Shown here in pieces: positions 38,310 to 49,229 of a DNA stretch of 64,000 bases (the first letter of the stretch is position 1; each line of letters starts with the position of its first letter). This stretch comes from Alphaproteobacteria bacterium. GTDB taxonomy: Bacteria > Pseudomonadota > Alphaproteobacteria > UBA2966. Under the pieces are notes generated by a model. That model had not been told where the DNA came from, made no database searches, and saw only the letters and a program-made list of their open reading frames with translations. The position numbers were made by a program, and so were the translations under genes. The DNA is taken from contig OZ219858.1 in the NCBI GenBank assembly GCA_964291395.2, positions 768,001-832,000 on the forward strand. Reading direction: 5' to 3'.

Positions 38310-38518
38310 TCGCGCGACCTCCCTTCGATTGGTTTCGCTCGATGGTATGCCGGTCCCGGCCGCGGAACAATCGTTCGAAGTCCGACAAGTGAGGATGCGG
38401 GTTGCCCCGGGCCTTGACGCGGCGGGGACGAGGTCCTATGGCGCTTCAGGTCGGGCCTGAACCGCTCCGACGGTCGACGCGGGGCGGAGGGCCGCCACCA
38501 TGCTTCGGGGAGAAGACG

Positions 38519-39335
38519 ATGAAAGCGAAATCCAACGGCATCGAGATCAACTATGCGGTCGAAGGGCCCGAGGACGCGCCCGTCGTGGTCATGAGCCATT
38601 CGCTGGCCTCGAGCCATCGCATGTGGGACTCCCAGATGCCGGTCCTGTCGGATTACCGGGTCTACCGGTTCGACACGCGCGGCCACGGCGGCACCGACGC
38701 GCCGGACGGTCCCTACGACCTCGATATGCTGGCTGGCGGACGACGCGCGCGGCTTGCTCGATGCCCTGGGCCTCGGCGCGGTCCATTTCGTGGGCCTGTC
38801 GATGGGCGGCATGATCGGCCAGATGCTGGCGATCAAGTATCCCGAGGTCCTGCTCTCCGCAACGCTCTGCGCGACCTCGAGCCGCATGCCCGAGGAAGCC
38901 TGGCCAGCCTGGCGGGAACGTATCGACACGGCGAAGGCGCATGGTATGGGAGCGCTCGTCGAAGCCACCATCGAACGCTGGTTCACGCGAAACTTCATCG
39001 CCTCGAACGAGAACGCCGTCGGCCCGATCCGCGATCTGGTGCGGTCGACTCCCGTGCAGGGCTATACCAGTTGCATCGAGGCCATCATGAAGCTCGACAT
39101 CACCGACCGCCTGAGATCGGTGAACCTGCCGACCTTGATCATCGCCGGCGAAGACGACGAGTCCACGCCGGTGGCGGCTCACGAGGCCATCCACGCGGCC
39201 GTCTCCGGCTCCGAACTGGTGGTGGTGCCGACGGCCAAGCACTTCGTCAACGTCGAGCAGAGCGGACCCGTCAACGACGCCCTGAGCCGCTTCCTGGCTC
39301 GGCACGCGGGCGGACGGGCTCGGGCGGCGGAGTAG
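38519..39335 (+). pseudogene. pcaD: 3-oxoadipate enol-lactonase-like hydrolase, frameshifted by a 4-bp duplication
   Basis: SHSLA...MWD.Q...FDTRGHG in one frame, GLSMGG and the C-terminus in another; CTGG duplicated at 38729-38736. Confidence 0.75.
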
Positions 39336-39525
39336 GCGATACGGTTGGACGGTTCCGTGGTCCAAGCCGTATTGACTCGGTGGGGAGAAGACCACCACGT
39401 GAAGTTGGTCGATGCCGGGGAGTCGTCTTCAACCTCCTGAAATCGCCACCACTCCAGAAGGGTCTACGTCCATCATTCGCACAATGTTGGGGAGCGCGCT
39501 ATACGGCCCGTATCGGGCCACATTA

Positions 39526-39540
39526 TGAGAATTATTCGCA
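39526..39540. promoter_or_regulatory. Fur-like box upstream of hemP
   Basis: TGAGAATTATTCGCA, 7-1-7 near-palindrome in an AT-rich patch. Confidence 0.75.
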
Positions 39541-39623
39541 TTTGCATTTACAATCCAAATCCTTTGCGCTATAGAAGGACGGTGTCGAACGTCGTTCGAG
39601 CTTGAGCGACGGGAGACGCGTCC

Positions 39624-39854
39624 GTGACGAGCGAGGCGGAGGAGATGGACAAATCTCTTCTCGAATCGATGTTCCGCGAACACTGGCGATCCCCTCGGAC
39701 AGAACACGCAACCGTGTCCGAACGGGGCGCCGGGACGCGGGAGATCACCAGCCGGGATCTGCTGGGCGACGGCCGCGAAGTCATCATCCGGCATGGCGCG
39801 GAAGCCTACCGACTCAAGCTGACCAACAGCGGCAAGCTGCTGCTGACGAAATGA
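39624..39854 (+). CDS. hemP: Hemin uptake protein HemP/HmuP
   Basis: ITSRDLL...REVIIRHGAEAYRLKLTNSGKLLLTK signature. Confidence 0.9.
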   Translation: MTSEAEEMDKSLLESMFREHWRSPRTEHATVSERGAGTREITSRDLLGDGREVIIRHGAEAYRLKLTNSGKLLLTK

Positions 39855-39985
39855 ACCGCAGAGAGGTGCGATCTCTCCACCGCCTCCAACGACGCATCGA
39901 ACCAAGCCAGCCAACGGCGCGCGACCGCGACACCAGCCAGCCAGGTTCCCAACCCAATGAGGACCGACAAGGGAGCCAGACCGCA

Positions 39986-40801
39986 GTGTCACGCCACAAC
40001 ACCGATCACTACCACACACCGAACCCGGCCGACGGGTCCGAAGCCGCGTCGAAGGACGCCGGTACGTCCGTCGTCTACGTCCGCCCGAAGGACGTTCACC
40101 TGACCCTCGCCGACCTGACGGAAGCGGAGAGCCTCGTCCTGTGGGCCATCAGGACCTGGGTTCGAGGTTTCATGCGGGATATTCCCGTTGCCAAGAGCAT
40201 CGTCAACGGATTGCGCCGCGCGCACGCCGAGAAGATCTTTATGGAACTCGACGGACTCATGTCGCTCTTCGGACGCAACGCGCGACGGCGTCTCGACGTT
40301 CGGTGCCCCGCGTGCGGCTCTCTGAGCCCTGACGAGTACGGCTTTCTGCTGCTCATCGGAGCGGCCCAAGCCGGGCTGAAGGACCTGGTCCAAGCAGTCG
40401 CACGGGAAGGGCTGGAACCTCCGGCTCCGTCATATGGTGCCCTACAGGCCGATCGACTGGCGGCGAATCTGCGCGCCGGTGGGATTGAGCTGCCGCTGCG
40501 GACTCCCAAGGTTGCCGAGAATTCCTCCATGCACGCAATGGCACCCCTTCCGGGCAACCGTACCGTTCGTCTCGGGGTGACAGGACGCGCCGTGGCGGCT
40601 CGGCGGGAGGAGCGGATTGTTTCATGGCCTGCACTCGCCCCGCCACTTGAACTGAACCTGGGAATTGGGGACGGCACCGTGGGCCGAGGGCCTCGGACGC
40701 CGGGTCTCCCGACCGTCGACCTGCGGTGCCCCGTGTCGTTCCTGTGGCGTTGGTGGGCTCAAACCGCCGGCGAGTATCGACCGACGATTTGCCGCTATTG
40801 A
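39986..40801 (+). CDS. Hypothetical protein with CxxC motif downstream of hemP (alternative start 39851)
   Basis: RBS AAGGGAG before GTG 39986; protein-like core LWAIRTW...LDVRCPACGSLSPDE..LL.LIGAAQAG. Confidence 0.6.
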   Translation: MSRHNTDHYHTPNPADGSEAASKDAGTSVVYVRPKDVHLTLADLTEAESLVLWAIRTWVRGFMRDIPVAKSIVNGLRRAHAEKIFMELDGLMSLFGRNARRRLDVRCPACGSLSPDEYGFLLLIGAAQAGLKDLVQAVAREGLEPPAPSYGALQADRLAANLRAGGIELPLRTPKVAENSSMHAMAPLPGNRTVRLGVTGRAVAARREERIVSWPALAPPLELNLGIGDGTVGRGPRTPGLPTVDLRCPVSFLWRWWAQTAGEYRPTICRY

Positions 40802-40835
40802 AAATCATTCGTAAAGGTATTGACAATCATTCTTA
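40799..40835. promoter_or_regulatory. Two Fur-like boxes upstream of bfd
   Basis: TGAAAATCATTCGTA (40799-40813) and TGACAATCATTCTTA (40821-40835), the latter overlapping TTGACA. Confidence 0.7.
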
Positions 40836-40888
40836 TTTGCACCAAAAAGGGGCTGCAACAGGACACCGACAGGACGGCGCCACGAGCC

Positions 40889-41080
40889 ATGTACGTTTGC
40901 ATCTGTAATCGTTACCGGGACAGCGACCTCCGCGACCTCGCGGCTGACGGCGCCCGCTCGGCGGAAGAAGCGTATTCCGTGCTCGGAAACGGTCCGCAGT
41001 GCGGCCGCTGCCTTCAATTCGCCCAGGCCCTGATGGACGAAGTGACGGCGGCGGCGGTCGCGGAATCGACCGTGGGCTGA
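40889..41080 (+). CDS. bfd: Bacterioferritin-associated ferredoxin
   Basis: MYVCICN...CGRC [2Fe-2S] motif. Confidence 0.9.
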   Translation: MYVCICNRYRDSDLRDLAADGARSAEEAYSVLGNGPQCGRCLQFAQALMDEVTAAAVAESTVG

Positions 41081-41281
41081 CGAGTTCGGGACGGGAAATC
41101 CCGGCGATGTTCTGTTGGCCCCGACTTCGTTCAAAAAACCTTCTGGCGGCCGCGCGCTATGTCTCGGGCGCGCTGTCGGCGGGCCAACCGCGCCCCCGGG
41201 ACCCGCAAGCGGGTTTGGCGGGATCGGCCGGCATGAAAATCGAGGACCCGGGCTCCGGGGTGACGGGACGGGTCCGGCCGG

Positions 41282-41752
41282 TCACTCGCCGCTCTGAAAC
41301 TGAACAAAGTTCTCCAGACCCATTGTATCTATGAGCCCGAGCTGGGTTTCCAGCCAGTCGACGTGCTCCTCTTCCCCTTCCAGAATGTCCTCGAGCAGTT
41401 CGCGGGTCACGTAGTCCGACTGCTGCTCGGAGCATGCAATGGCCTCCCGAACCAGCGGGATCGCCTCGTGTTCCAGCCTGAGATCGCAGTCCAGAACCTC
41501 CTTCACGGTTTCTCCGATCAGGAGCTTGTTGAGGTCCTGGAGGTTCGGCAGACCCTCGAGAAACAGAATCCGCTCGACCAACCTGTCCGCGTGCTTCATC
41601 TCGTCCACCGATTCCTCGTACTCGTGTTTGGCCAGACGAGACACACCCCAATTCTTCAACATGCGTGAATGCAGGAAGTATTGATTGATCGCCGTCAACT
41701 CGTTCCTCAGGACACGATTGAGGAAATCGACAACCTTCGCGTCACCTTGCAC
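41282..41752 (-). CDS. bfr: Bacterioferritin
   Basis: ELTAINQYFLH, DEMKHAD, LEGLPNLQ, EEEHVDWLE; RBS AAGGAG before GTG. Confidence 0.95.
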   Translation of the reverse strand: MQGDAKVVDFLNRVLRNELTAINQYFLHSRMLKNWGVSRLAKHEYEESVDEMKHADRLVERILFLEGLPNLQDLNKLLIGETVKEVLDCDLRLEHEAIPLVREAIACSEQQSDYVTRELLEDILEGEEEHVDWLETQLGLIDTMGLENFVQFQSGE

Positions 41753-41863
41753 GGCACTCTCCTTCGCTGATCGATCGGATACCACCGGTGCGGATCCGAT
41801 GATTCCGCATCATGTCGCAAGAACTTTCGCCTGACCACGGCAACGACTCGCTTGACGCAATTC

Positions 41864-41878
41864 TGCGATTGATTATCA
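41864..41878. promoter_or_regulatory. Fur-like box in the bfr/DUF4856 divergent region
   Basis: TGCGATTGATTATCA, inside a TTGACG-N16-TATCAT plus-strand promoter-like element. Confidence 0.6.
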
Positions 41879-42016
41879 TTATTATATAATCGCGGGTACT
41901 CACACACCGTCGGCCGGGCGCCCGACCCGTTCCTGACGCGCCTCAGATGGGATAGCCACCCCACACGGGCGCCGAATCATACAAGAGATCCAAGGGCTTG
42001 GAATATGTATTGCGAG

Positions 42017-42062
42017 TGTGAATTATTCGCATTGATCAATGTGCAATTGTGAATTATTCTCA
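42017..42062. promoter_or_regulatory. Two Fur-like boxes upstream of the DUF4856 gene
   Basis: TGTGAATTATTCGCA (42017-42031) and TGTGAATTATTCTCA (42048-42062). Confidence 0.75.
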
Positions 42063-42099
42063 ATATCATGAATCAGCGACGAACGCGAGGACGAGTCAA

Positions 42100-43524
42100 A
42101 TGAGCAAAGCAATCACCGCGGGGACCGCGGCGGTCACTTTGGCGCTGCTTTCCGGCGCGGCGCTGGCCGACGACATGGTCTACGCCGGCTTCCCCGTGAC
42201 CGTGAAAGGGTACAGCGGCAGTAAAACGACGTCGGTCTCCTACACCGGGCAGGTCGCCCGTCACGTTCTTCACGATTCGCTGAAGAAACTCGCCGGCTCC
42301 GGCAACGGAAAGCCCAATCCGGAACTGAAGGCCAAGATGATGGCCTACTTCGGCGGGAAGGACGCCGGACGCGAGATCATCGCGCCGGCGACCAAGGGGC
42401 CGTTCGCGATCTCCCAGTCGGCGGTCGACGAGATCAGCAAGGGGAAGAACCTGTCCGGCAAGACGTTCAAGGCCGCCGTCACGGGCATGCCGAACGGCAT
42501 GATCGGCCCGGAGCTGGTCGAATTCTGGATCGACAAGGCGTCGTCCGCCAACAAGGGATTCGACAAGGACAACGGTTACGATTATCCGCAACTGATCTCC
42601 AAGTACGTCATGGGCGCGGTGTTCTACAACCAGGCCGCCGACGGCTATCTGGACGAGTATCTCAGCGCGGACAAAAAGCCCAACGACAAGCCCTACAAGG
42701 ATGGAGCGGCCTACACCGGGAAAGAGCACTCTTGGGACGAGGCCTTCGGCTATTTCGGGACGCCGGCCCACACGCTGAAGCTCACGCCGAAGCAGGTCTA
42801 CGGCATCGCGAAGCGCAAGTCCGAGGCTTTCGCGGACGCCGACTACAACAAGGACGGGAAGGTGGATCTGAGAACCGAAATGACGTTCGGTCCGGCCTAT
42901 TACGCCGCGGGGTTCGACGCCTCCGTCTACGACAAGAGCAACGGAACCAGCTACCTGCACACGATCACGAAGGCCTTCCTCGACGGCCGCAAGCTGCTCA
43001 CGGACGCCAAGGGCGAGAAGCTGACGGACGAACAGCGCGACCAGCTGAAGCGCCATGCTTCGGTCATCACGCGGAATTGGGAGAAGGTCCTGGCCGAGGC
43101 AACCTTCAAGTATGCGGGTTCGGTCTACAAGGACATGGTGAAGCTCCAGACCATCGTGGACTCCGGCGGAGACCCGAGCAAGGCGTTCCGCGCGTACGCG
43201 AAGCACTGGGGAGAGCTCAAGGGCTTCGCCCTCGCGTTGCAGTCCGGCAAGGACAACCTCGGCGAGACGGCGACGAGGCTGAACCGGATGATCGGCGCCG
43301 GCCCGCTGCTGCTCAACGCCAGCCAGGTCGTCGACATCGACAGCCAGGGCAACTACGTTCGCGACCAGGGACCGGACTGGGGCGAGTACATGCTCCACAT
43401 GGCCAAGGTGCAGAAGCTGATGATCGACCAGTTCGGCGTCCAGGCGCGCAACAACGACGTGACGGGAGAGATGGCGGCGTTGGCCGGCCAGCTCGGCGAC
43501 AAGGCGTCCGCCGAAAACGACTAG
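42100..43524 (+). CDS. Secreted DUF4856-like protein (iron-regulated)
   Basis: Signal peptide ending ALA-DD, SVSYTGQ.AR, QLISK..MGAVFYNQ, EHSWDEAFGYFG, KHWGELKGF motifs. Confidence 0.78.
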   Translation: MSKAITAGTAAVTLALLSGAALADDMVYAGFPVTVKGYSGSKTTSVSYTGQVARHVLHDSLKKLAGSGNGKPNPELKAKMMAYFGGKDAGREIIAPATKGPFAISQSAVDEISKGKNLSGKTFKAAVTGMPNGMIGPELVEFWIDKASSANKGFDKDNGYDYPQLISKYVMGAVFYNQAADGYLDEYLSADKKPNDKPYKDGAAYTGKEHSWDEAFGYFGTPAHTLKLTPKQVYGIAKRKSEAFADADYNKDGKVDLRTEMTFGPAYYAAGFDASVYDKSNGTSYLHTITKAFLDGRKLLTDAKGEKLTDEQRDQLKRHASVITRNWEKVLAEATFKYAGSVYKDMVKLQTIVDSGGDPSKAFRAYAKHWGELKGFALALQSGKDNLGETATRLNRMIGAGPLLLNASQVVDIDSQGNYVRDQGPDWGEYMLHMAKVQKLMIDQFGVQARNNDVTGEMAALAGQLGDKASAEND

Positions 43525-43550
43525 GACGGTTCCGGTTTGACCGGAAGCGC

Positions 43551-43678
43551 CAGGGAACAGGTGTCGGACCCGGACGAGCGATAATGCGGGGTCCGACACC
43601 GATCCCTGCACCAGCTTCCCGCCGTAAGAAACCGCGGGCAGGGGCCGGAACGACGGCGTCCCGGCCCCCGTGGTTTTT
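43551..43678 (+). terminator. Two tandem intercistronic hairpins (stabiliser or partial terminator)
   Basis: GGTGTCGGACCC/GGGTCCGACACC 12-bp stem; GGGGCCGG/CCGGCCCC stem followed by GTGGTTTTT. Confidence 0.6.
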
Positions 43679-43696
43679 CCCGGGGATAGGTTGATC

Positions 43697-45712
43697 ATGG
43701 ACGCCCTGTTCGTCGATTACGTCGACCGTCTGGCCGACCAGCTCCTCAACCCGCAGAAGCGGGTTTTCATCGGCTACCTGGCAAGCGCTTTGGTTCTGGC
43801 ACTCGGAGTCCGGGTGTTCGCCGCCAGAACGACGCTCCTTCGAGCGCCGGCCCGGATATTCAGCGCCAGGGTCTGGTGGTCCCGGTCGGCGAAGGCGGAC
43901 TACAAGATCGCCGCCCTCAATCAGGCGATCATGATGGGCGTGGCCCCGCGCCTGATTTCCCAACTGGCGGTGGCCACCCTCCTGTTCGAAGCCATGCACG
44001 TTTGGTTCGGCGGGCGTCCCCTCGTCTGGCTCGAAGTGCCCGGCTGGGCGGTTGCCGGCGTGTTTACCGTCGTGCTTTTCCTCCTCGATGACGCGACCAA
44101 GTATCTGCTCCACCGATGCCTCCACGCATCGCCCGTCCTGTGGTGTTTCCACAAGGTTCACCACACGGCGGAGACGATGACTCCGTTCACGGTGTATCGC
44201 ACCCACCCGGTCGAGGCCGTGCTCTTCGCCTTGCGCGCCACCTTGGTGCAGGCGGTCGCCATGGCGGCGTTCTTCTTCTTTCTGGGCGACCGCGTGGAGC
44301 TGATGACGGTATTCGGAGCCAACGTGATCCTGTTCGTGTTCAACGTCGCCGGATCGAATCTCCGTCACTCCCACGTATGGATCTCCTATGGACGCGTCAT
44401 CGAGCACGTCCTGATCTCGCCGGCACAGCACCAGATCCACCACTCCGTCGATCCGCGGCACCACGATCGGAACTTCGGAACCGTGCTGGCGATTTGGGAT
44501 TGGATGGGGCATAGCCTGTGTCTTGCCGAACGCGGGCATGAAATCCGCTATGGGGTGACGGGCGCCGCGCCCGAGCCTCACGGTTTGAAGGCCGTCTATC
44601 TCGAACCCTTTCGGGAAGCCGTCGCGGGCTTGTCCGGACTACGATGCTGGAGACCTGTCAAGATGTTTTCCTCGCTGAATTCCCGGCCGCTCCGCCGGAG
44701 CGGTATCGCCATCCTCGCCGCCGCGCTGGCAACCGTGCTCGAAGCGGCCGCGTCCGGCGCTTCGTCGCAGGACCTCAACATCTATTCGCACCGCCAACCG
44801 TTCCTGATCAACCCGTTCATCGAGGCGTACGAGGAGCGGACCGATGTGACGATCAACATCGTCTTCGCCTCCAAGGGACTGGCGCAGCGCCTTCAGGCGG
44901 AGGGACCGCGGAGCCCGGCGGACGTCGTGCTGACGGTCGATATCGCCCGTCTCCATACGTACGCCGACAAGGACCTCCTGGCGCCCGTCGAGTCGGCCGT
45001 TCTGACGAAGAACATCCCGCCTCATCTGCGCGATCCCGGCAACCGTTGGTTCGCCTTTTCCAAGCGGGCCCGCGTGATCGTCGTCTCGAAAAAGGCGGAG
45101 GACGGCTTCTCGATCAAGAGCTATGAGGATCTGACGGATCCCAAGTGGAAAGGCCGCATCTGCGCGCGGCCGGGCAGTCACGTGTACAACAGGGCCCTGA
45201 TCGCCTCCTTGATCGAATCCCGGGGCGAGGAAGGGGCACAGGCCTGGGCGCAGGGCCTGTTCGACAACCTGGCGCGACGGCCGCAAGGCAACGACCGGGC
45301 GCAGGTGAAGGCGATCTACGAGGGCGTGTGCGACGTCGCCATCATCAACAACTACTATTACGGAAAACTGAAGCGGTCCGACGTACCCGAACAACGCGAG
45401 TGGGCGGCGGCCGTGCGCCTGATCTTTCCAAATCAGGACGGCCGCGGAACGCATGTCAATATTTCGGGCGGAGGCGTCGCCAAGCATTCCAAGAACAAGG
45501 AACGAGCGGTTCACTTCCTGGAGTTCTTGACATCCGAGACCGCTCAGAAGCTGTATGGCTCCATCAATTACGAGTATCCGGTGAATCCGGCCGTCGAGCC
45601 GTCGGACGAGCTGAAGTCCTGGGGAGCGTTCAAGGAAGATCAGATGCCCATCGCCCGTATCGCCGAATTGGCCCCACAGGCGCAGCGCGTCATCGACCGC
45701 GTGGGATGGTGA
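43697..45712 (+). CDS. Fusion: sterol desaturase/fatty-acid hydroxylase family domain + FutA/FbpA Fe(III)-binding protein
   Basis: His boxes HRCLH, HKVHH, HSH, HQIHH; then a signal-like stretch from Met 44663; then NIYSHRQ, SPADVVLTVD, HVYN, NNYYYG, HVNISG; no stop between domains. Confidence 0.85.
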   Translation: MDALFVDYVDRLADQLLNPQKRVFIGYLASALVLALGVRVFAARTTLLRAPARIFSARVWWSRSAKADYKIAALNQAIMMGVAPRLISQLAVATLLFEAMHVWFGGRPLVWLEVPGWAVAGVFTVVLFLLDDATKYLLHRCLHASPVLWCFHKVHHTAETMTPFTVYRTHPVEAVLFALRATLVQAVAMAAFFFFLGDRVELMTVFGANVILFVFNVAGSNLRHSHVWISYGRVIEHVLISPAQHQIHHSVDPRHHDRNFGTVLAIWDWMGHSLCLAERGHEIRYGVTGAAPEPHGLKAVYLEPFREAVAGLSGLRCWRPVKMFSSLNSRPLRRSGIAILAAALATVLEAAASGASSQDLNIYSHRQPFLINPFIEAYEERTDVTINIVFASKGLAQRLQAEGPRSPADVVLTVDIARLHTYADKDLLAPVESAVLTKNIPPHLRDPGNRWFAFSKRARVIVVSKKAEDGFSIKSYEDLTDPKWKGRICARPGSHVYNRALIASLIESRGEEGAQAWAQGLFDNLARRPQGNDRAQVKAIYEGVCDVAIINNYYYGKLKRSDVPEQREWAAAVRLIFPNQDGRGTHVNISGGGVAKHSKNKERAVHFLEFLTSETAQKLYGSINYEYPVNPAVEPSDELKSWGAFKEDQMPIARIAELAPQAQRVIDRVGW

Positions 45713-47385
45713 GCCAAGCCGCTCTCGGCGGCGCCACGAAGGCCGGAAATCGGGTTACGCCCTGGACCCTCGCGGCGGTCGCCCTCGCGCTCGTATTCTT
45801 CGCGCCGATTCTCTCGGTGTTCGCCGCCGCGACGGGCGATAGCGGCGGGCTGTGGGATCATCTGTTCCGGACCGTGTTCCCGCGCTACGTGGCCAACACG
45901 TTGACCCTGATGGCCGGAGTCGGCTCCGTCAGCCTGTTGTTCGGAGTGGCGGCCGCGTGGGTGGTTCACCGATACGCGTTCCCGGGCAGAGCGATCCTGC
46001 AATGGATGCTGCTGCTGCCCGCCGCGGTCCCGACCTACCTCATCGCCTATACCTACACGGACTTTCTCGAGTATGCCGGGCCCCTGCAACAGGTGCTGCG
46101 CGACATGTTCGGATGGCGAAATGCCCGAGACTACTGGTTCCCGGAAATCCGTTCCATGGGGGGCGCCTCGCTCGTGCTCGGCGCGGTTCTCTATCCCTAC
46201 GTCTACATGATGGCCCGCACGGCATTCCTGTTGACGCCGGCCGGGCTGTTCGAGGTCGGAATGCTCGCCAAGCGAAATCTCTTCTTCAACGTCGCGCTGC
46301 CGCTGGCCCGGCCGGCCATCGTCGCGGGGTTGGCTTTGGTGTTGATGGAGACGATCTCGGAGTTCGGCGCCGTCGAGTACTTTGCCATCGAGACCATCAC
46401 GCTGGGCATCTTCAACGTCTGGCTCGGCATGAACAGCCTGCCCGCGGCCGCCCAAATCGCCTCCGTCTCCACGCTCTTCATCGTCGCCCTCCTGTGCGTC
46501 GAGCTGCTGGCGCGCTCCCGCAGACGGTTTACCAACACCAGCCGGAAGACCATGCCGCTGGCCGCGACCCCAGTGGGCGGATTGAAGGCTCTCGCCTGCG
46601 CCGCCGTGTGCCTGACGCCCGTGGTGGTCGGTTTCGTGATTCCCGCCGGACTCCTGTCGGGCTTCGTCCTTCAGGGACACTCGCTCGAATTCGACAGCGG
46701 CGTGGTGACCGCGTCCCTCAACTCCATCGCCCTTGCCGGGGCCGTGGCGTTCTTCGTCATCGCGTCGGCGGCGTTCATGGGACTCGTCGCCCACTACCAG
46801 GGCGGCGTCCCGCTGAAGCGCCTGACCGCCCTCGCCTCGGTCGGCTACGCATTCCCCGGCACGATCCTCGCCATCGGCGTGATCACGGTGGGCGGAGCGA
46901 TCGACGACGGCATCGGCGCGTTCGTCGAGAACACCCTGGGCCTGTCCTATCAGGGCTGGTTGACCGGGGGCATCGGCCTCGTCGCCATTGCCTGCACCGT
47001 TCGATTTCAGGCCGTCGGCTACGGGGCGATTACGACGGGGCTCCAGCGGCTGCCGCCCAACATGATGGAAGCCAGCCGCTCTCTGGGACACACGTTCGCG
47101 CAGAGCCTGCGCGACGTCATCCTGCCGCTGCTCCGTCTCCCCCTGATCACGGGAGGGTTGCTGGTGTTCGTCGACGTGATGAAAGAGCTGCCCATGACGC
47201 TTCTGCTGCGGCCGTTCAATTACGAGACGCTGGCCACGTACGTGTATCAGTTCGCCAAGGACGAGTTGCTGGAAGAGGCGGCCCTGCCGGCGCTCTTCAT
47301 CGTCATCGTCGGCATCCTGCCGGTCATCGCGATGAACGCCATGCTGCGCAGGATCGCCCGGCAGGACACGTCCGCGCCCCGCTGA
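45706..47385 (+). CDS. fbpB: Fe(III) ABC transporter permease (FutB/FbpB)
   Basis: YWFPEIRS, LYPYVY, LPLARPAI, MEASRSLG, FVDVMKELP.TLLLRPFN.ETLA. Confidence 0.9.
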   Translation: MVSQAALGGATKAGNRVTPWTLAAVALALVFFAPILSVFAAATGDSGGLWDHLFRTVFPRYVANTLTLMAGVGSVSLLFGVAAAWVVHRYAFPGRAILQWMLLLPAAVPTYLIAYTYTDFLEYAGPLQQVLRDMFGWRNARDYWFPEIRSMGGASLVLGAVLYPYVYMMARTAFLLTPAGLFEVGMLAKRNLFFNVALPLARPAIVAGLALVLMETISEFGAVEYFAIETITLGIFNVWLGMNSLPAAAQIASVSTLFIVALLCVELLARSRRRFTNTSRKTMPLAATPVGGLKALACAAVCLTPVVVGFVIPAGLLSGFVLQGHSLEFDSGVVTASLNSIALAGAVAFFVIASAAFMGLVAHYQGGVPLKRLTALASVGYAFPGTILAIGVITVGGAIDDGIGAFVENTLGLSYQGWLTGGIGLVAIACTVRFQAVGYGAITTGLQRLPPNMMEASRSLGHTFAQSLRDVILPLLRLPLITGGLLVFVDVMKELPMTLLLRPFNYETLATYVYQFAKDELLEEAALPALFIVIVGILPVIAMNAMLRRIARQDTSAPR

Positions 47386-47399
47386 CCGGTCATCCCGTA

Positions 47400-47690
47400 C
47401 GGATACGTCTCTCCAAGCGGTCGAGACCGTTCTCCCGAAATCCGTCCTGGGAGTCCCGTCCTGGAACGCCGTTGGTGTCACACCGACGACGCTCCAGGAC
47501 TCGCTCCAGGCTCAGGGAGGCGAGCACCCGGCAAGGAGCACGACCAGTCGGCCGGCAACCACCATTGAGGTCAGTGATCCGAGAATGCTCGCTCTGGAGT
47601 GGGACAAACGCCGCAGGCACGAGGCCGTCGGCGGAGGACATGACCCGCTCGCCCTTCGTCACGGATCGGAAGACATTCCCGCGATCCGTG
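47400..47690 (-). ncRNA. Candidate iron-regulated structured sRNA
   Basis: Minus-strand TATAAT (47694-47699) abutting a Fur-like box; 9-bp stem 47660-47690; 20-bp hairpin 47458-47500; no recognisable protein. Confidence 0.35.
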
Positions 47691-47700
47691 CGCATTATAT

Positions 47701-47782
47701 TGCGAATTAGTCTTAATCGCATGATGCGTCATTCATGCGGGAAACGAGACCCCGAGTCAAGTGTTAATGCGAACTATTCGCA
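47701..47782. promoter_or_regulatory. Two orphan Fur-like boxes
   Basis: TGCGAATTAGTCTTA (47701-47715) and TGCGAACTATTCGCA (47768-47782). Confidence 0.65.
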
Positions 47783-48201
47783 AATTTTGTCGCATCCCGC
47801 CAGCCACTTGGATGACGGAGATCGGAAAGCCCCGCCCGCCGTCCTCGGTCCATAAGAATCGGTTATCCGGCTCCGAGGAAATCGGTATTGGTGGTCGTAC
47901 CGCGTCCTCCCCACGTCAATTCTAGAAAGTCCTCAGCAGATCGGGAGCAATCCGATGTTGGACAGACGCAGAGGCCTCAGAAAAATCATCACCACGGTCG
48001 GTCACATCGTGGGGAATTTCGTGTCCCGAGCCGGTGTGGAGACCCCGAAGAAGAGGCCACCCTCACGGCAGCAGGGCGAGGCACCGGACGGCGAGCATCG
48101 CCGGCGGGTGATCTATCGCTGCACCCTCTCGACGCCGCACCGCCTTAGCGGCTTCAGAATCTGGGACGCATAGGAGGACCCCTCGCAATAGGCCTCGACG
48201 A

Positions 48202-49032
48202 TCAGACCGGCCGATCACCCGCGACAGTGAACCTGTAGCCGTGCCGCACCTCGGGATGGTAGTCGAACATGGCGTAGTGCTGGGCGCAACGGTTGTCCCA
48301 GAACGCCACTGAATTCGCTCGCCATCTAAAGCGGCAATGGTACTTCGGCTGGCGGATGTGTTCGTAAAGCATCCCGAGGACGGCGTCGCTTTCGGCGGCA
48401 GTCACATCCTTGATGTGTGAGGTGAAGATCTCGTTCACGAACAAGGCCTTGCGCCCGGTCACAGGGTGGGTGCGCACAACCGGATGCTCCGAAACCGGCG
48501 GTGTCTCGTCCCGGAGCTGCGGGCTCTGCTCCTGGCGACCGTCGTAGACCTGTGGCGCGCTGTGCACCGCAGTGAGACCCGAGAGGAACTGTTGCATGGT
48601 GTCCGACAGATCCTCGTGAGCCGCATACATGCTGGCGAAAAGAGTGTCGCCGCCGGTGCTTGGCGCTTCCGTCAGGTAGAGGATGCTGCCCATCGGCGGC
48701 TCAGGGTCGCAGGACACGTCCGAGTGCCAGCCGCCGCTCCCCGCCGCGAATTTGGTCGTCTCGTCGGCGCGGATGATCAGCAGTTCGGGATGCCCCAGGT
48801 CTCCCGACCCGAACATGGGATGGATGTGCAATTCGCCGAACTGCCGTGCGAACACCTTGTGCTGATCGATGGTCATGTGCTGGTCACGGAAGAAGATGAC
48901 CTGATGCTCCATGAGAGCGTCGTGGACCTCCTTGAAGGTCTGGTTACCCAACGGCTTCGATAGGTCGATACCGCCGATCTCGGCACCGATGCGGGGGGTT
49001 ACGGGCTCGACGTGAATCGTCTCATAGGTCAT
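48202..49032 (-). CDS. TauD/TfdA family Fe(II)/2-oxoglutarate dioxygenase
   Basis: WHSD, GGDTLFASM, HPVVRTHPVTGRK, FWDNR..QH. Confidence 0.9.
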   Translation of the reverse strand: MTYETIHVEPVTPRIGAEIGGIDLSKPLGNQTFKEVHDALMEHQVIFFRDQHMTIDQHKVFARQFGELHIHPMFGSGDLGHPELLIIRADETTKFAAGSGGWHSDVSCDPEPPMGSILYLTEAPSTGGDTLFASMYAAHEDLSDTMQQFLSGLTAVHSAPQVYDGRQEQSPQLRDETPPVSEHPVVRTHPVTGRKALFVNEIFTSHIKDVTAAESDAVLGMLYEHIRQPKYHCRFRWRANSVAFWDNRCAQHYAMFDYHPEVRHGYRFTVAGDRPV

Positions 49033-49229
49033 GGCACACCCTTCCGAACGTTCGTTCGCGGCTGAGCGAACTACCCACCCACCGGTACAGCATACTACGC
49101 GGCTTTCGGGCACTGCTCGATAAACGACCGTTTTTTCCAGCACGACGAGAGAGCGCATCCCGGCGATGCTTTCGACCCCCACCTGACAACGATATGCTTG
49201 CGCGGCGCATCGGAAATCGAGAACCTGTC

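Follow-up and report, generated by a model that had tools for sequence, protein, structure and literature searches.

An 8.3-kb island within the 64-kb stretch of DNA analysed here (the window), which belongs to an alphaproteobacterial genome of 4,161,607 bases with approximately 65% G+C, contains a cassette of three co-oriented genes encoding a DUF4856-like periplasmic protein, a membrane protein of the FA_hydroxylase family joined in frame to a FutA-type Fe(III)-binding domain, and a FutB-type permease. Our analysis moderately favors the view that this cassette is a Fur-controlled ferric-iron uptake operon of the FbpABC/FutABC kind, i.e., an ATP-binding cassette (ABC) importer, which is preceded by a conserved two-protein front end and in which iron is relayed from the secreted protein to FutA and FutB, as proposed in the initial annotation of this DNA. 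The components of this view differ in strength: judged from sequence, the cassette is a real and conserved Fe(III) ABC uptake system that is probably repressed by iron, and it is plausible that the DUF4856-like protein takes part in a relay. The present work adds the anatomy of the fusion with its retained internal start, a candidate for an unlinked ATPase, a genome-wide contrast in operator sites, a link to the FEA1 proteins, and a model of the complex between the DUF4856-like protein and FutA.

Conservation and anatomy of the cassette

The binding protein and the permease, which are certain to form the transport core, are ordinary in their sequence features. The FutA domain matches the FbpA of M. 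haemolytica (1Q35, E-value 1.7e-88), the Trichodesmium protein 6G7N (E 1.1e-84) and Synechocystis FutA1 (2PT1, E 4.2e-84), each match covering approximately 312 residues. The motifs SHRQP (R366), HVYNRAL (Y497) and NNYYYG (Y553/Y554) correspond to identical residues in 1Q35 and do not vary among 20 fused proteins; by reference to M. haemolytica FbpA, we take Y497 and Y553/Y554 to be the tyrosine iron ligands and R366 to be the anion-binding arginine. No second copy of FutA or FutB was found in the host genome at an E-value of 1e-8.

The initial annotation noted no TonB receptor, imelysin, ABC ATPase or siderophore-synthesis gene in the island. Domain searches of the island bear this out, but as a description of the system the lack of an ATPase is true of the island alone: in 20 of 49 relatives, a futC gene (ABC_tran plus TOBE_2) directly follows futB or converges on it, and the host genome holds an unlinked candidate. 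The latter, which is the best ATPase match in that genome (G000:C1:1762976-1764034), is 46% identical over its full length to the ATPase of locus L001, and is a lone gene on contig C1, flanked by tatC and scpAB and lacking an adjacent permease gene.

The gene neighborhood was surveyed from both ends. The fused protein was searched against one genome per species, which yielded 69 loci, while the DUF4856 alignment was employed as the query for metagenomes, where the best 79 of at least 509 loci were analysed. The surveyed loci include many close kin (for example, SAR11-like single-cell genomes) and the counts are not independent; protein identities to those of the window range from 43% to 89%. 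The 69 genome loci comprise 53 with a cassette-type hydroxylase, seven with the FutA half only, and nine with distant hydroxylases (32-37% identity). The DUF4856-like gene resides in the same operon in 51 of the 53 cassette-type loci, being directly upstream in 49 and separated by intervening genes in two gammaproteobacterial ones, while the remaining two are a locus with no contig room for it (L042) and a locus that truly lacks it (L043). Of the 62 metagenome loci that leave room of 600 nt or more, 58 have the hydroxylase immediately downstream of DUF4856. FutA is present in 40 of 47 metagenome loci, a co-oriented FutB in 21 of 32, and the ATPase in nine of 23, with FutB and the ATPase placed convergently in several others. 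Taken from either end, the surveys, which follow the check proposed in the initial annotation, support a conserved system.

The cassette is present in at least 509 metagenome stretches, mostly marine. Its carriers include Rhodospirillales, Nisaea, Defluviicoccus and Hyphomicrobiales, and of 187 genomes from the order to which a SAR11 (Pelagibacterales) single-cell genome belongs, 53 have the DUF4856-like gene. Closer to the host, the gene is found in five of 41 genomes, namely the host itself, three of five congeners and one genome of another family of the same class, and in none of seven genomes of other genera of the family. The cassette is accessory and patchy, since just five of these 41 relatives possess it. 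Furthermore, bfr adjoins the cassette in only five of the 69 genome loci and six of the 79 metagenome loci, and the bfr/bfd storage genes are therefore a local addition outside the conserved unit. The proposal that Bfr and Bfd provide storage and release next door thus suits the gene content of this island, but does not extend to the conserved system. In a Defluviicoccus-like locus (L028:12300-13718), a DDE transposase occupies the place after the fused gene where futB would be expected, and 6 kb beyond it there is a fragment of FutA; this cassette seems to be disrupted.

The fused gene is an uninterrupted open reading frame (ORF). Hydroxylase and FutA share one frame in 30 of the 48 loci that hold both (in L012, with a stop inside the hydroxylase part), and are separate ORFs in the other 18, of which 17 overlap or are at most 12 nt apart; L013 retains only a remnant of the hydroxylase. 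An assembly artefact was considered as the source of the fusion and dropped, as the fusion recurs in 30 loci from independent assemblies. In 19 of 20 aligned fused ORFs, the internal ATG is kept and is followed by a complete signal peptide, whose positive n-region and hydrophobic core lead to small residues ahead of mature FutA; a purine-rich Shine-Dalgarno-like run precedes this ATG by 5-14 nt in approximately 17 of the 20 (judged by eye). The segment might serve as a linker helix, as an internal start or as a site of cleavage. Free FutA may also arise, by initiation at the internal ATG or through cleavage of the fusion by signal peptidase; in both cases, the sequence indicates that hydroxylase and FutA are made together. 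The fusion of a desaturase to FutA reported in the initial annotation is thus real and recurrent at the ORF level, but its FutA moiety may also occur as a free protein. At the junction with the permease gene, the futB ATG overlaps the stop codon of the fused ORF (ATGGTGA).

The DUF4856-like protein and the hydroxylase

In source databases the first protein of the cassette is labelled just "DUF4856 domain-containing protein" or "hypothetical protein", and no mention of DUF4856 was found in open-access papers and bioRxiv; the same sources yielded no paper combining "sterol desaturase" with "imelysin", or with "Fur regulon" and "iron". The match to PF16148 covers model positions 124-204 of 358 only, and all 32 members of the DUF4856 alignment (A1) match this family. 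The protein carries a Sec signal peptide ending in ALA, with DD following, and no lipobox. Many of its tyrosines are invariant, and conservation extends to two H-W-x-E motifs (EHSWDEAFGYFG and KHWGELKGF), a beta-hairpin at residues 406-426, and an EF-hand-like loop (DxNxDGxVDLxxE), for which 12 of the 32 members give weak EF-hand matches in Pfam. The AlphaFold2 (AF2) model, with a predicted local distance difference test score (pLDDT) of 89.8 and a predicted template modelling score (pTM) of 0.90, is all-helical save for a small hairpin at 408-423. Sequence searches of the PDB with the protein and with A1 returned nothing meaningful.

Modelling of the mature DUF4856-like protein together with the FutA domain produced a complex scoring 0.74 (0.74, 0.69 and 0.77 in individual runs), against 0.29 for the best of three controls. 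This mark is reached by 116 of 157 solved complexes and by two of 215 mismatched pairs, a calibration that is rough here, since our own alignments were used. The runs share at least 78% of their contacts, and the partner has a pLDDT of at least 92. On the DUF4856 side, the predicted interface involves conserved residues of the hairpin (N406, S408, Q409, D412, D414, S415, N418, R421, D422 and Q423), and on the FutA side it comprises R491-V496, directly before the ligand Y497, together with R528-G531 and the C-terminus. When the FutA-associated type of DUF4856 protein is compared with another type, represented by two proteins, eight of the 22 interface residues belong to segments that only the former possesses. 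In both of the two proteins, which are of the TonB-receptor type and have no FutA partner, residues 416-433 are absent, and this absence of part of the hairpin region is a hint of FutA specificity. The model supports, but does not show, binding of the DUF4856-like protein to FutA at the iron cleft.

A look-up with a protein language model, from which DUF4856 clusters were left out, returned Fea1 (PF07692) of diatoms and haptophytes as the three nearest clusters, with a Fea1 cluster score of 0.80 and 180 of 256 features shared, a result that by the calibration of the tool counts as a lead only. A profile search with the Fea1 alignment A3 then gathered 180 representatives, of which 44 diverse ones were aligned; all 44 have Fea1 as their top Pfam family, 42 of them over the cut-off. 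Using hhalign, the DUF4856 alignments A5 and A1 matched these 44 Fea1 representatives with a probability (Prob) of 91.9% over 128 columns and 92.1% over 191 columns, respectively, both at an E-value of ~7e-7. The alignment pairs HSWDEAFGYFG with hnWDE.wAFY.G, FKYAG with LKYA, and HWGE with aE. Eight controls, made up of reversed alignments and three unrelated families, all gave 1% or less, and four of the 44 Fea1 proteins match PF16148 weakly. The signal came from the diverse Fea1 alignment only, the narrow alignment A3, built on the close family of a bacterial Fea1 protein from another alphaproteobacterium, giving a Prob of 0.6-0.85% when used alone, and a PDB search with A3 found nothing meaningful. 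On these profile comparisons, DUF4856 and FEA1/ISIP2a are probably remote homologues. A bacterial Fea1 member (PF07692, E 6.6e-12) is encoded at L156:1414-2367 in a genome of Xanthobacteraceae type (G072); this is the sole match among 401 genomes of the phylum, and the family comprises 67 clusters, all but one unnamed.

The remote relation to FEA1/ISIP2a and the docking result both lend indirect support to the suggestion that FutA receives its iron from a secreted helical protein which has captured it; neither shows binding of iron.

The hydroxylase part of the fusion displays three histidine boxes (HRCLH, HKVHH and HQIHH) which, together with further histidines, are invariant in 19 sequences (H139, H143, H152, H155, H156, H170, H224, H245, H248 and H249). 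It is probably a working O2-dependent di-iron enzyme, because all of its histidine boxes are invariant across these sequences. Hydropathy analysis indicates five membrane segments, with the signal-peptide-like segment before FutA as a sixth, and the positive-inside rule predicts that the loops rich in histidine and in lysine and arginine are cytoplasmic and that FutA is periplasmic. Of the predicted cytoplasmic loops, the last contains eleven histidines and the one preceding it six. A PDB sequence search with the hydroxylase half returned nothing meaningful, and the AF2 model of the whole fusion (pLDDT 63.8, pTM 0.47) is too poor to be used for the hydroxylase. The NCBIfam model of the ornithine-lipid hydroxylase OlsE matches at 33 bits against a cut-off of 475 (E 3.3e-8).

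Non-iron contexts are seen for more distant hydroxylases, which share approximately 26-31% identity in alignment A2 and 32-37% by tblastn. Three of them, with 33-35% identity (L061:9953-11758, L063:9800-11758 and L067:7514-10954), are accompanied by a creatininase-family partner, which is a fused domain in Micavibrio and a flanking gene in a metagenome-assembled genome (MAG) of Terriglobia; this is a different conserved partnership. In three alphaproteobacterial MAGs, hydroxylases of the wider clade are found in or beside the ATP synthase operon (L065:9812-10795, L066:683-1729 and L068:2443-3510): those of L065 and L068 lie between the genes for the gamma and beta subunits, and on the short contig of L066 just the downstream beta-subunit gene is visible.

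Putative Fur-type operators and the surrounding locus

The palindrome pattern TGNGAATNATTCNCA has three exact matches in the host genome (39526, 42017 and 42048), all three of which are in the island. With up to one mismatch the genome contains five sites, four of them in the island, and with up to two mismatches 59 sites, of which eight lie within its 8.3 kb, all of them intergenic. The two-mismatch total is at chance level (22 observed on contig C3 versus 26-38 in three Markov simulations), and the genome-wide contrast is partly circular, as the pattern was derived from the island sites themselves; with this reservation, the Fur-like boxes of the island exceed chance. Moreover, four promoter-like sites were found in 39300-48300, where 1.4 ± 1.3 are expected, and three of these overlap a box. 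The interleaving of Fur-like boxes with the genes of the island, as noted in the initial annotation, is thus borne out by eight palindromes that include all of the exact matches. The host genome encodes four Fur-family proteins.

The same pattern was sought in related loci, confined to the 46 with at least 320 nt upstream and a match beginning no later than residue 60. A match with two or fewer mismatches is present within 300 nt upstream of the DUF4856-like gene in 30 of the 46, and in 27 of the 46 the upstream match stands at or below the 5th percentile of background windows from the same locus. SAR11-like loci (e.g., L035:8398) carry TTAGAATAATTCTAA before the cassette instead of a Fur-type box. 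A palindrome of the same look, TTAGAATGATTCTAA, is located at G000:C3:1306203 in the host genome; both resemble the Irr iron-control element. Regulation of the cassette by iron is likely from these upstream sequences. An RNA library of a sponge metatranscriptome contains near-identical contigs over 43909-45162, including the hydroxylase/FutA junction, which indicates presence only.

The features of the island are collected in Table 1. All members of the gene list given in the initial annotation (hemP, an unnamed CxxC protein, bfd, bfr and the three co-oriented genes) were found where it had placed them.

Table 1. Genes, domains and putative control sites of the iron island, with positions in the window
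Feature	Position	Strand	Evidence and remarks
Fur-type palindrome TGAGAATTATTCGCA upstream of hemP	39526-39540	.	exact match; overlaps promoter-like site 39525-39554
hemP (small protein of the HemP/HmuP family)	39624-39854	+	PF10636, E 5.7e-15
Conserved hypothetical ORF with CPAC motif	~40124-40801	+	start uncertain; conservation limited to first ~150 residues
Two Fur-like boxes before bfd, over a promoter-like site	40799-40835 (boxes 40799, 40821)	.	2 mismatches each
bfd, bacterioferritin-associated [2Fe-2S] ferredoxin	40889-41080	+	PF04324, E 1.5e-8
bfr, bacterioferritin	41282-41785	-	TIGR00754, E 6.8e-71
Promoter-like site TTGACG-16-TATCAT	41852-41879		in the divergent control region
Divergent control region of bfr and the DUF4856-like gene, three boxes	41864-42062	.	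41864 (2 mismatches); 42017 and 42048 (exact)
DUF4856-like periplasmic protein, 474 aa	42100-43524	+	PF16148, 42.1 bits (cut-off 22.3)
Fused ORF, uninterrupted (FA_hydroxylase plus solute-binding domain)	43670/43697-45712	+	PF04116 and FbpA/FutA matches
FA_hydroxylase part of the fused ORF (predicted membrane di-iron oxygenase)	43697-44661	+	PF04116, 76.3 bits (cut-off 31)
Internal in-frame ATG and signal-peptide-like segment MFSSLNSRPLRRSG-IAILAAALATVLEAAASGA	44663-44761	+	GGAGA located 9 nt upstream
FbpA/FutA-type Fe(III)-binding domain	44762-45712	+	matches to 1Q35, 6G7N, 2PT1
FutB/FbpB-type permease, 561 aa, two BPD_transp_1 domains	45706-47385	+	PF00528, two matched stretches
Two Fur-like boxes 3' of futB	47701-47782	.	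47701 (2 mismatches), 47768 (1 mismatch); target gene unassigned

The ORF with the CPAC motif has no match in Pfam or NCBIfam. It also adjoins hemP in loci L002, L008 and L078, and its closest clusters in the protein atlas are unnamed Pseudomonadota proteins (score 0.92); its product may be an undescribed partner of HemP. The two boxes 3' of futB might serve a minus-strand ORF of 110 aa (47390-47722) or else a small RNA that is not annotated. A Pfam search of the ORFs flanking these boxes found no match, and neither did an Rfam search of 38500-49000 at E-values up to 1. The stretch 47702-47804 is 79% identical to a site in one congener (G590).

Downstream of the island, a stretch of approximately 290 nt (47876-48170) has two further copies on contig C1 with 77-78% identity and may be a small repeat element; it is overlapped by a 72-aa ORF (47955-48173) with no family match. 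The adjoining TauD gene (48202-49182) has approximately 26 paralogues in the genome at an E-value of 1e-8 or better (tblastn), a striking expansion of the taurine-dioxygenase family in this host. The rest of the window is devoted to housekeeping and metabolism, and no other iron-transport genes were seen in it. Elsewhere, the host genome encodes two TonB receptors, and no imelysin gene was found in it.

Competing interpretations and known systems

In the preferred reading, the secreted DUF4856-like protein, as a probable distant relative of FEA1/ISIP2a, would capture Fe(III) in the periplasm and would use its hairpin (406-426) to dock beside Y497, where the FutA cleft opens, and hand the iron over. 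FutA, produced as the C-terminal portion of the fused ORF and possibly also from the internal start or released by cleavage at its signal peptide, would deliver the iron to FutB, which would be powered by a FutC-type ATPase encoded elsewhere, the candidate being the lone gene on contig C1. The oxygenase is predicted to have its di-iron center on the cytoplasmic side; our guess is that it performs an O2-dependent modification of a membrane lipid or of a lipid-soluble cofactor, and that the modified product might be needed for hand-over or release of iron at the inner membrane. For the di-metal enzyme, such a lipid or cofactor modification is the guess we prefer, and the acceptance or gating of iron would be the bolder alternative.

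A number of observations weigh against this reading. FutA-type solved homologues bind Fe(III) tightly on their own, which makes the need for another periplasmic binder less than obvious, and an iron-requiring oxygenase that is induced under iron starvation is paradoxical. DUF4856 proteins also serve operons with a TonB receptor and imelysin that contain no FutA. The core job of the pair is not FutA-specific, because the DUF4856-hydroxylase pair occurs without FutAB both in those operons and in L018, L023 and L030, and the fusion occurs without DUF4856 in L043. The pairing of FutB with the unlinked FbpC-like ATPase remains that of a candidate chosen by best match, and no Fur-type box was found near the ATPase gene. 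As regards the link to FEA1, the Pfam Fea1 model matches none of the 32 members of A1 at E-values up to 10, nor the six-frame translation of the host genome, and hhalign against a single bacterial Fea1 protein and the narrow alignment A3 gave a Prob of 0.1-0.85%. In structure searches with the DUF4856 model, Foldseek returned no PDB match at an E-value of 0.001 or better, and VIA-align against 48,161 chains returned generic four-helix bundles only (residues ~325-446), at Z scores of up to 9.3, which is within the range of the tool for chance helical matches; the model fits no specific solved structure, from which novelty of the fold does not follow. Finally, the published phylogeny, as cited in a review, derives ISIP2a from phosphonate-binding periplasmic proteins (PMC7676907), a fold that differs from the all-helical DUF4856 model. 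Homology to FEA1 thus sits uneasily with this derivation.

A more specific proposal, which we regard as doubtful though worth stating, holds that DUF4856 is the prokaryotic branch of FEA1/ISIP2a, captures Fe(III) in the periplasm and loads FutA directly by means of its hairpin, and that its obligate partner, the membrane di-iron oxygenase produced as one piece with FutA, performs an O2-dependent step of import. If true, the iron transporter most common among ocean bacteria, that of approximately a quarter of the SAR11-order genomes sampled included, would gain two new components, and the proposal would give algal phytotransferrin a bacterial origin that differs from the published one.

The inner-membrane position of the hydroxylase invites a different role, in which its cytoplasmic histidine cluster receives, reduces or senses iron arriving from FutB, or in which the protein is itself the inner-membrane step of the TonB version, i.e., an acceptor or gate and not a lipid enzyme. 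The TonB-receptor-type operons encode no other inner-membrane protein and no permease, the last two predicted cytoplasmic loops hold eleven and six histidines, and in loci with both proteins the hydroxylase is either fused to FutA (30 of 48) or separate and mostly overlapping with it, all of which would accord with such a role. We nevertheless consider it unlikely, given that the histidine boxes follow the standard catalytic pattern of PF04116 and that relatives occur in creatininase-family or ATP synthase contexts and not with iron genes.

The pair might instead handle organically bound iron, DUF4856 binding an iron-ligand complex (a siderophore-like or another organic chelate, for example) that has entered the periplasm, and the oxygenase oxidising or otherwise processing the lipophilic ligand or its carrier, with release of the iron to FutA or to the TonB route. 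This would accord with an oxygenase with intact catalytic histidine boxes and a pair that serves both the FutAB(C) back end and that of TonB receptor plus imelysin, TonB receptors being usually importers of chelates. However, the island holds neither siderophore synthesis nor a chelate-type binding protein, and the His-rich loops of the oxygenase are predicted to be cytoplasmic, away from periplasmic ligands. FutA, moreover, keeps the tyrosine and arginine motifs of solved Fe(III)-binding homologues, and what the solved FbpA/FutA homologues bind is bare Fe(III), either alone or together with carbonate. We therefore hold this explanation to be decidedly unlikely.

The least probable of these readings is one of co-regulation only, with the hydroxylase remodelling lipids under iron stress and the DUF4856-like protein acting as a calcium-binding periplasmic protein within a shared regulon, as the conserved EF-hand-like loop (weak EF-hand matches in 12 of 32), the OlsE match far below its cut-off (E 3.3e-8) and the patchy distribution (three of five congeners, none of seven genomes of other genera of the family) might suggest; the fusion or overlap of the hydroxylase gene with futA goes beyond a shared regulon, and the adjacency of the hydroxylase in 58 of 62 metagenome loci, a DUF4856-FutA complex model that passes its controls, and a hairpin confined to FutA-associated members likewise speak against it.

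Two of the four or five proteins of the cassette have no assigned function. If the proposed front end does condition or speed the capture of Fe(III), models of bacterial iron uptake in iron-poor seas miss a step, and if its ancestry is shared with phytotransferrin, the bacterial and eukaryotic uptake of unchelated iron would be linked. Cultured carriers of the cassette exist, namely Nisaea denitrificans DSM 18348 (locus L046) and Terasakiella.

Among known systems, the FbpABC/FutABC/SfuABC/HitABC importers (1Q35, 6G7N, 2PT1, 2VOZ, 1Y4T and 8C4Y) share with the cassette the motifs of the binding domain and the two-domain permease and, in those relatives of the cassette that carry it, an adjoining ABC_tran plus TOBE_2 ATPase. 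The cassette differs from them in having two extra conserved genes before the importer, in the fusion or coupling of its binding protein to a membrane oxygenase predicted to be of the di-iron type, and in the unlinked position of the ATPase in the host genome. For SAR11, the accessible portion of the report on iron limitation describes sfuA-C with no DUF4856 or hydroxylase partners, and gives an "unknown protein" of HTCC1062, SAR11_1239, as adjoining sfuC and induced 2.47-fold (PMC2864753); this protein was considered as a candidate member of the DUF4856-hydroxylase pair and set aside.

Fe(III) binding by ISIP2a is carbonate-dependent. Algal FEA1/FEA2 and diatom ISIP2a resemble DUF4856 in profile (Prob 92%) and share motifs with it, and compared with the aligned Fea1 profile, DUF4856 members have an extra EF-hand-like insertion and, in the FutA type, also the hairpin. 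In the accessible parts of two reports, FEA1 and ISIP2a are secreted or cell-surface proteins of low-iron regulons, which work with endocytosis or with FOX1/FTR1 and not with an ABC importer (PMC7966952, PMC7676907).

The same two families as in the cassette also meet in gammaproteobacterial operons of the order DUF4856, imelysin, TonB receptor and FA_hydroxylase (L058 and L060, Gayadomonas joobiniege), where identity to the proteins of the window is 29-32% for DUF4856 and 38-41% for the hydroxylase. Here, an outer-membrane receptor and imelysin constitute the back end instead of FutAB, and the DUF4856 proteins are devoid of residues 416-433, one of them having an added cadherin domain. The imelysin-like proteins of the EfeUOB type (Peptidase_M75) are likewise helical periplasmic proteins of iron regulons, and stand beside DUF4856 in L058 and L060. 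In contrast to this likeness, the DUF4856-like protein has no detectable profile similarity to imelysins (Prob 1% for A5 against an alignment of just two imelysins), and imelysins are absent from the top 50 rows of the structure searches with the DUF4856 model. Finally, the hydroxylase shares its PF04116 match and a full set of histidine boxes with the FA_hydroxylase superfamily, which includes sterol desaturases/hydroxylases and OlsE, and its clade is set apart from them by an extra N-terminal membrane region and by its iron-transport context.

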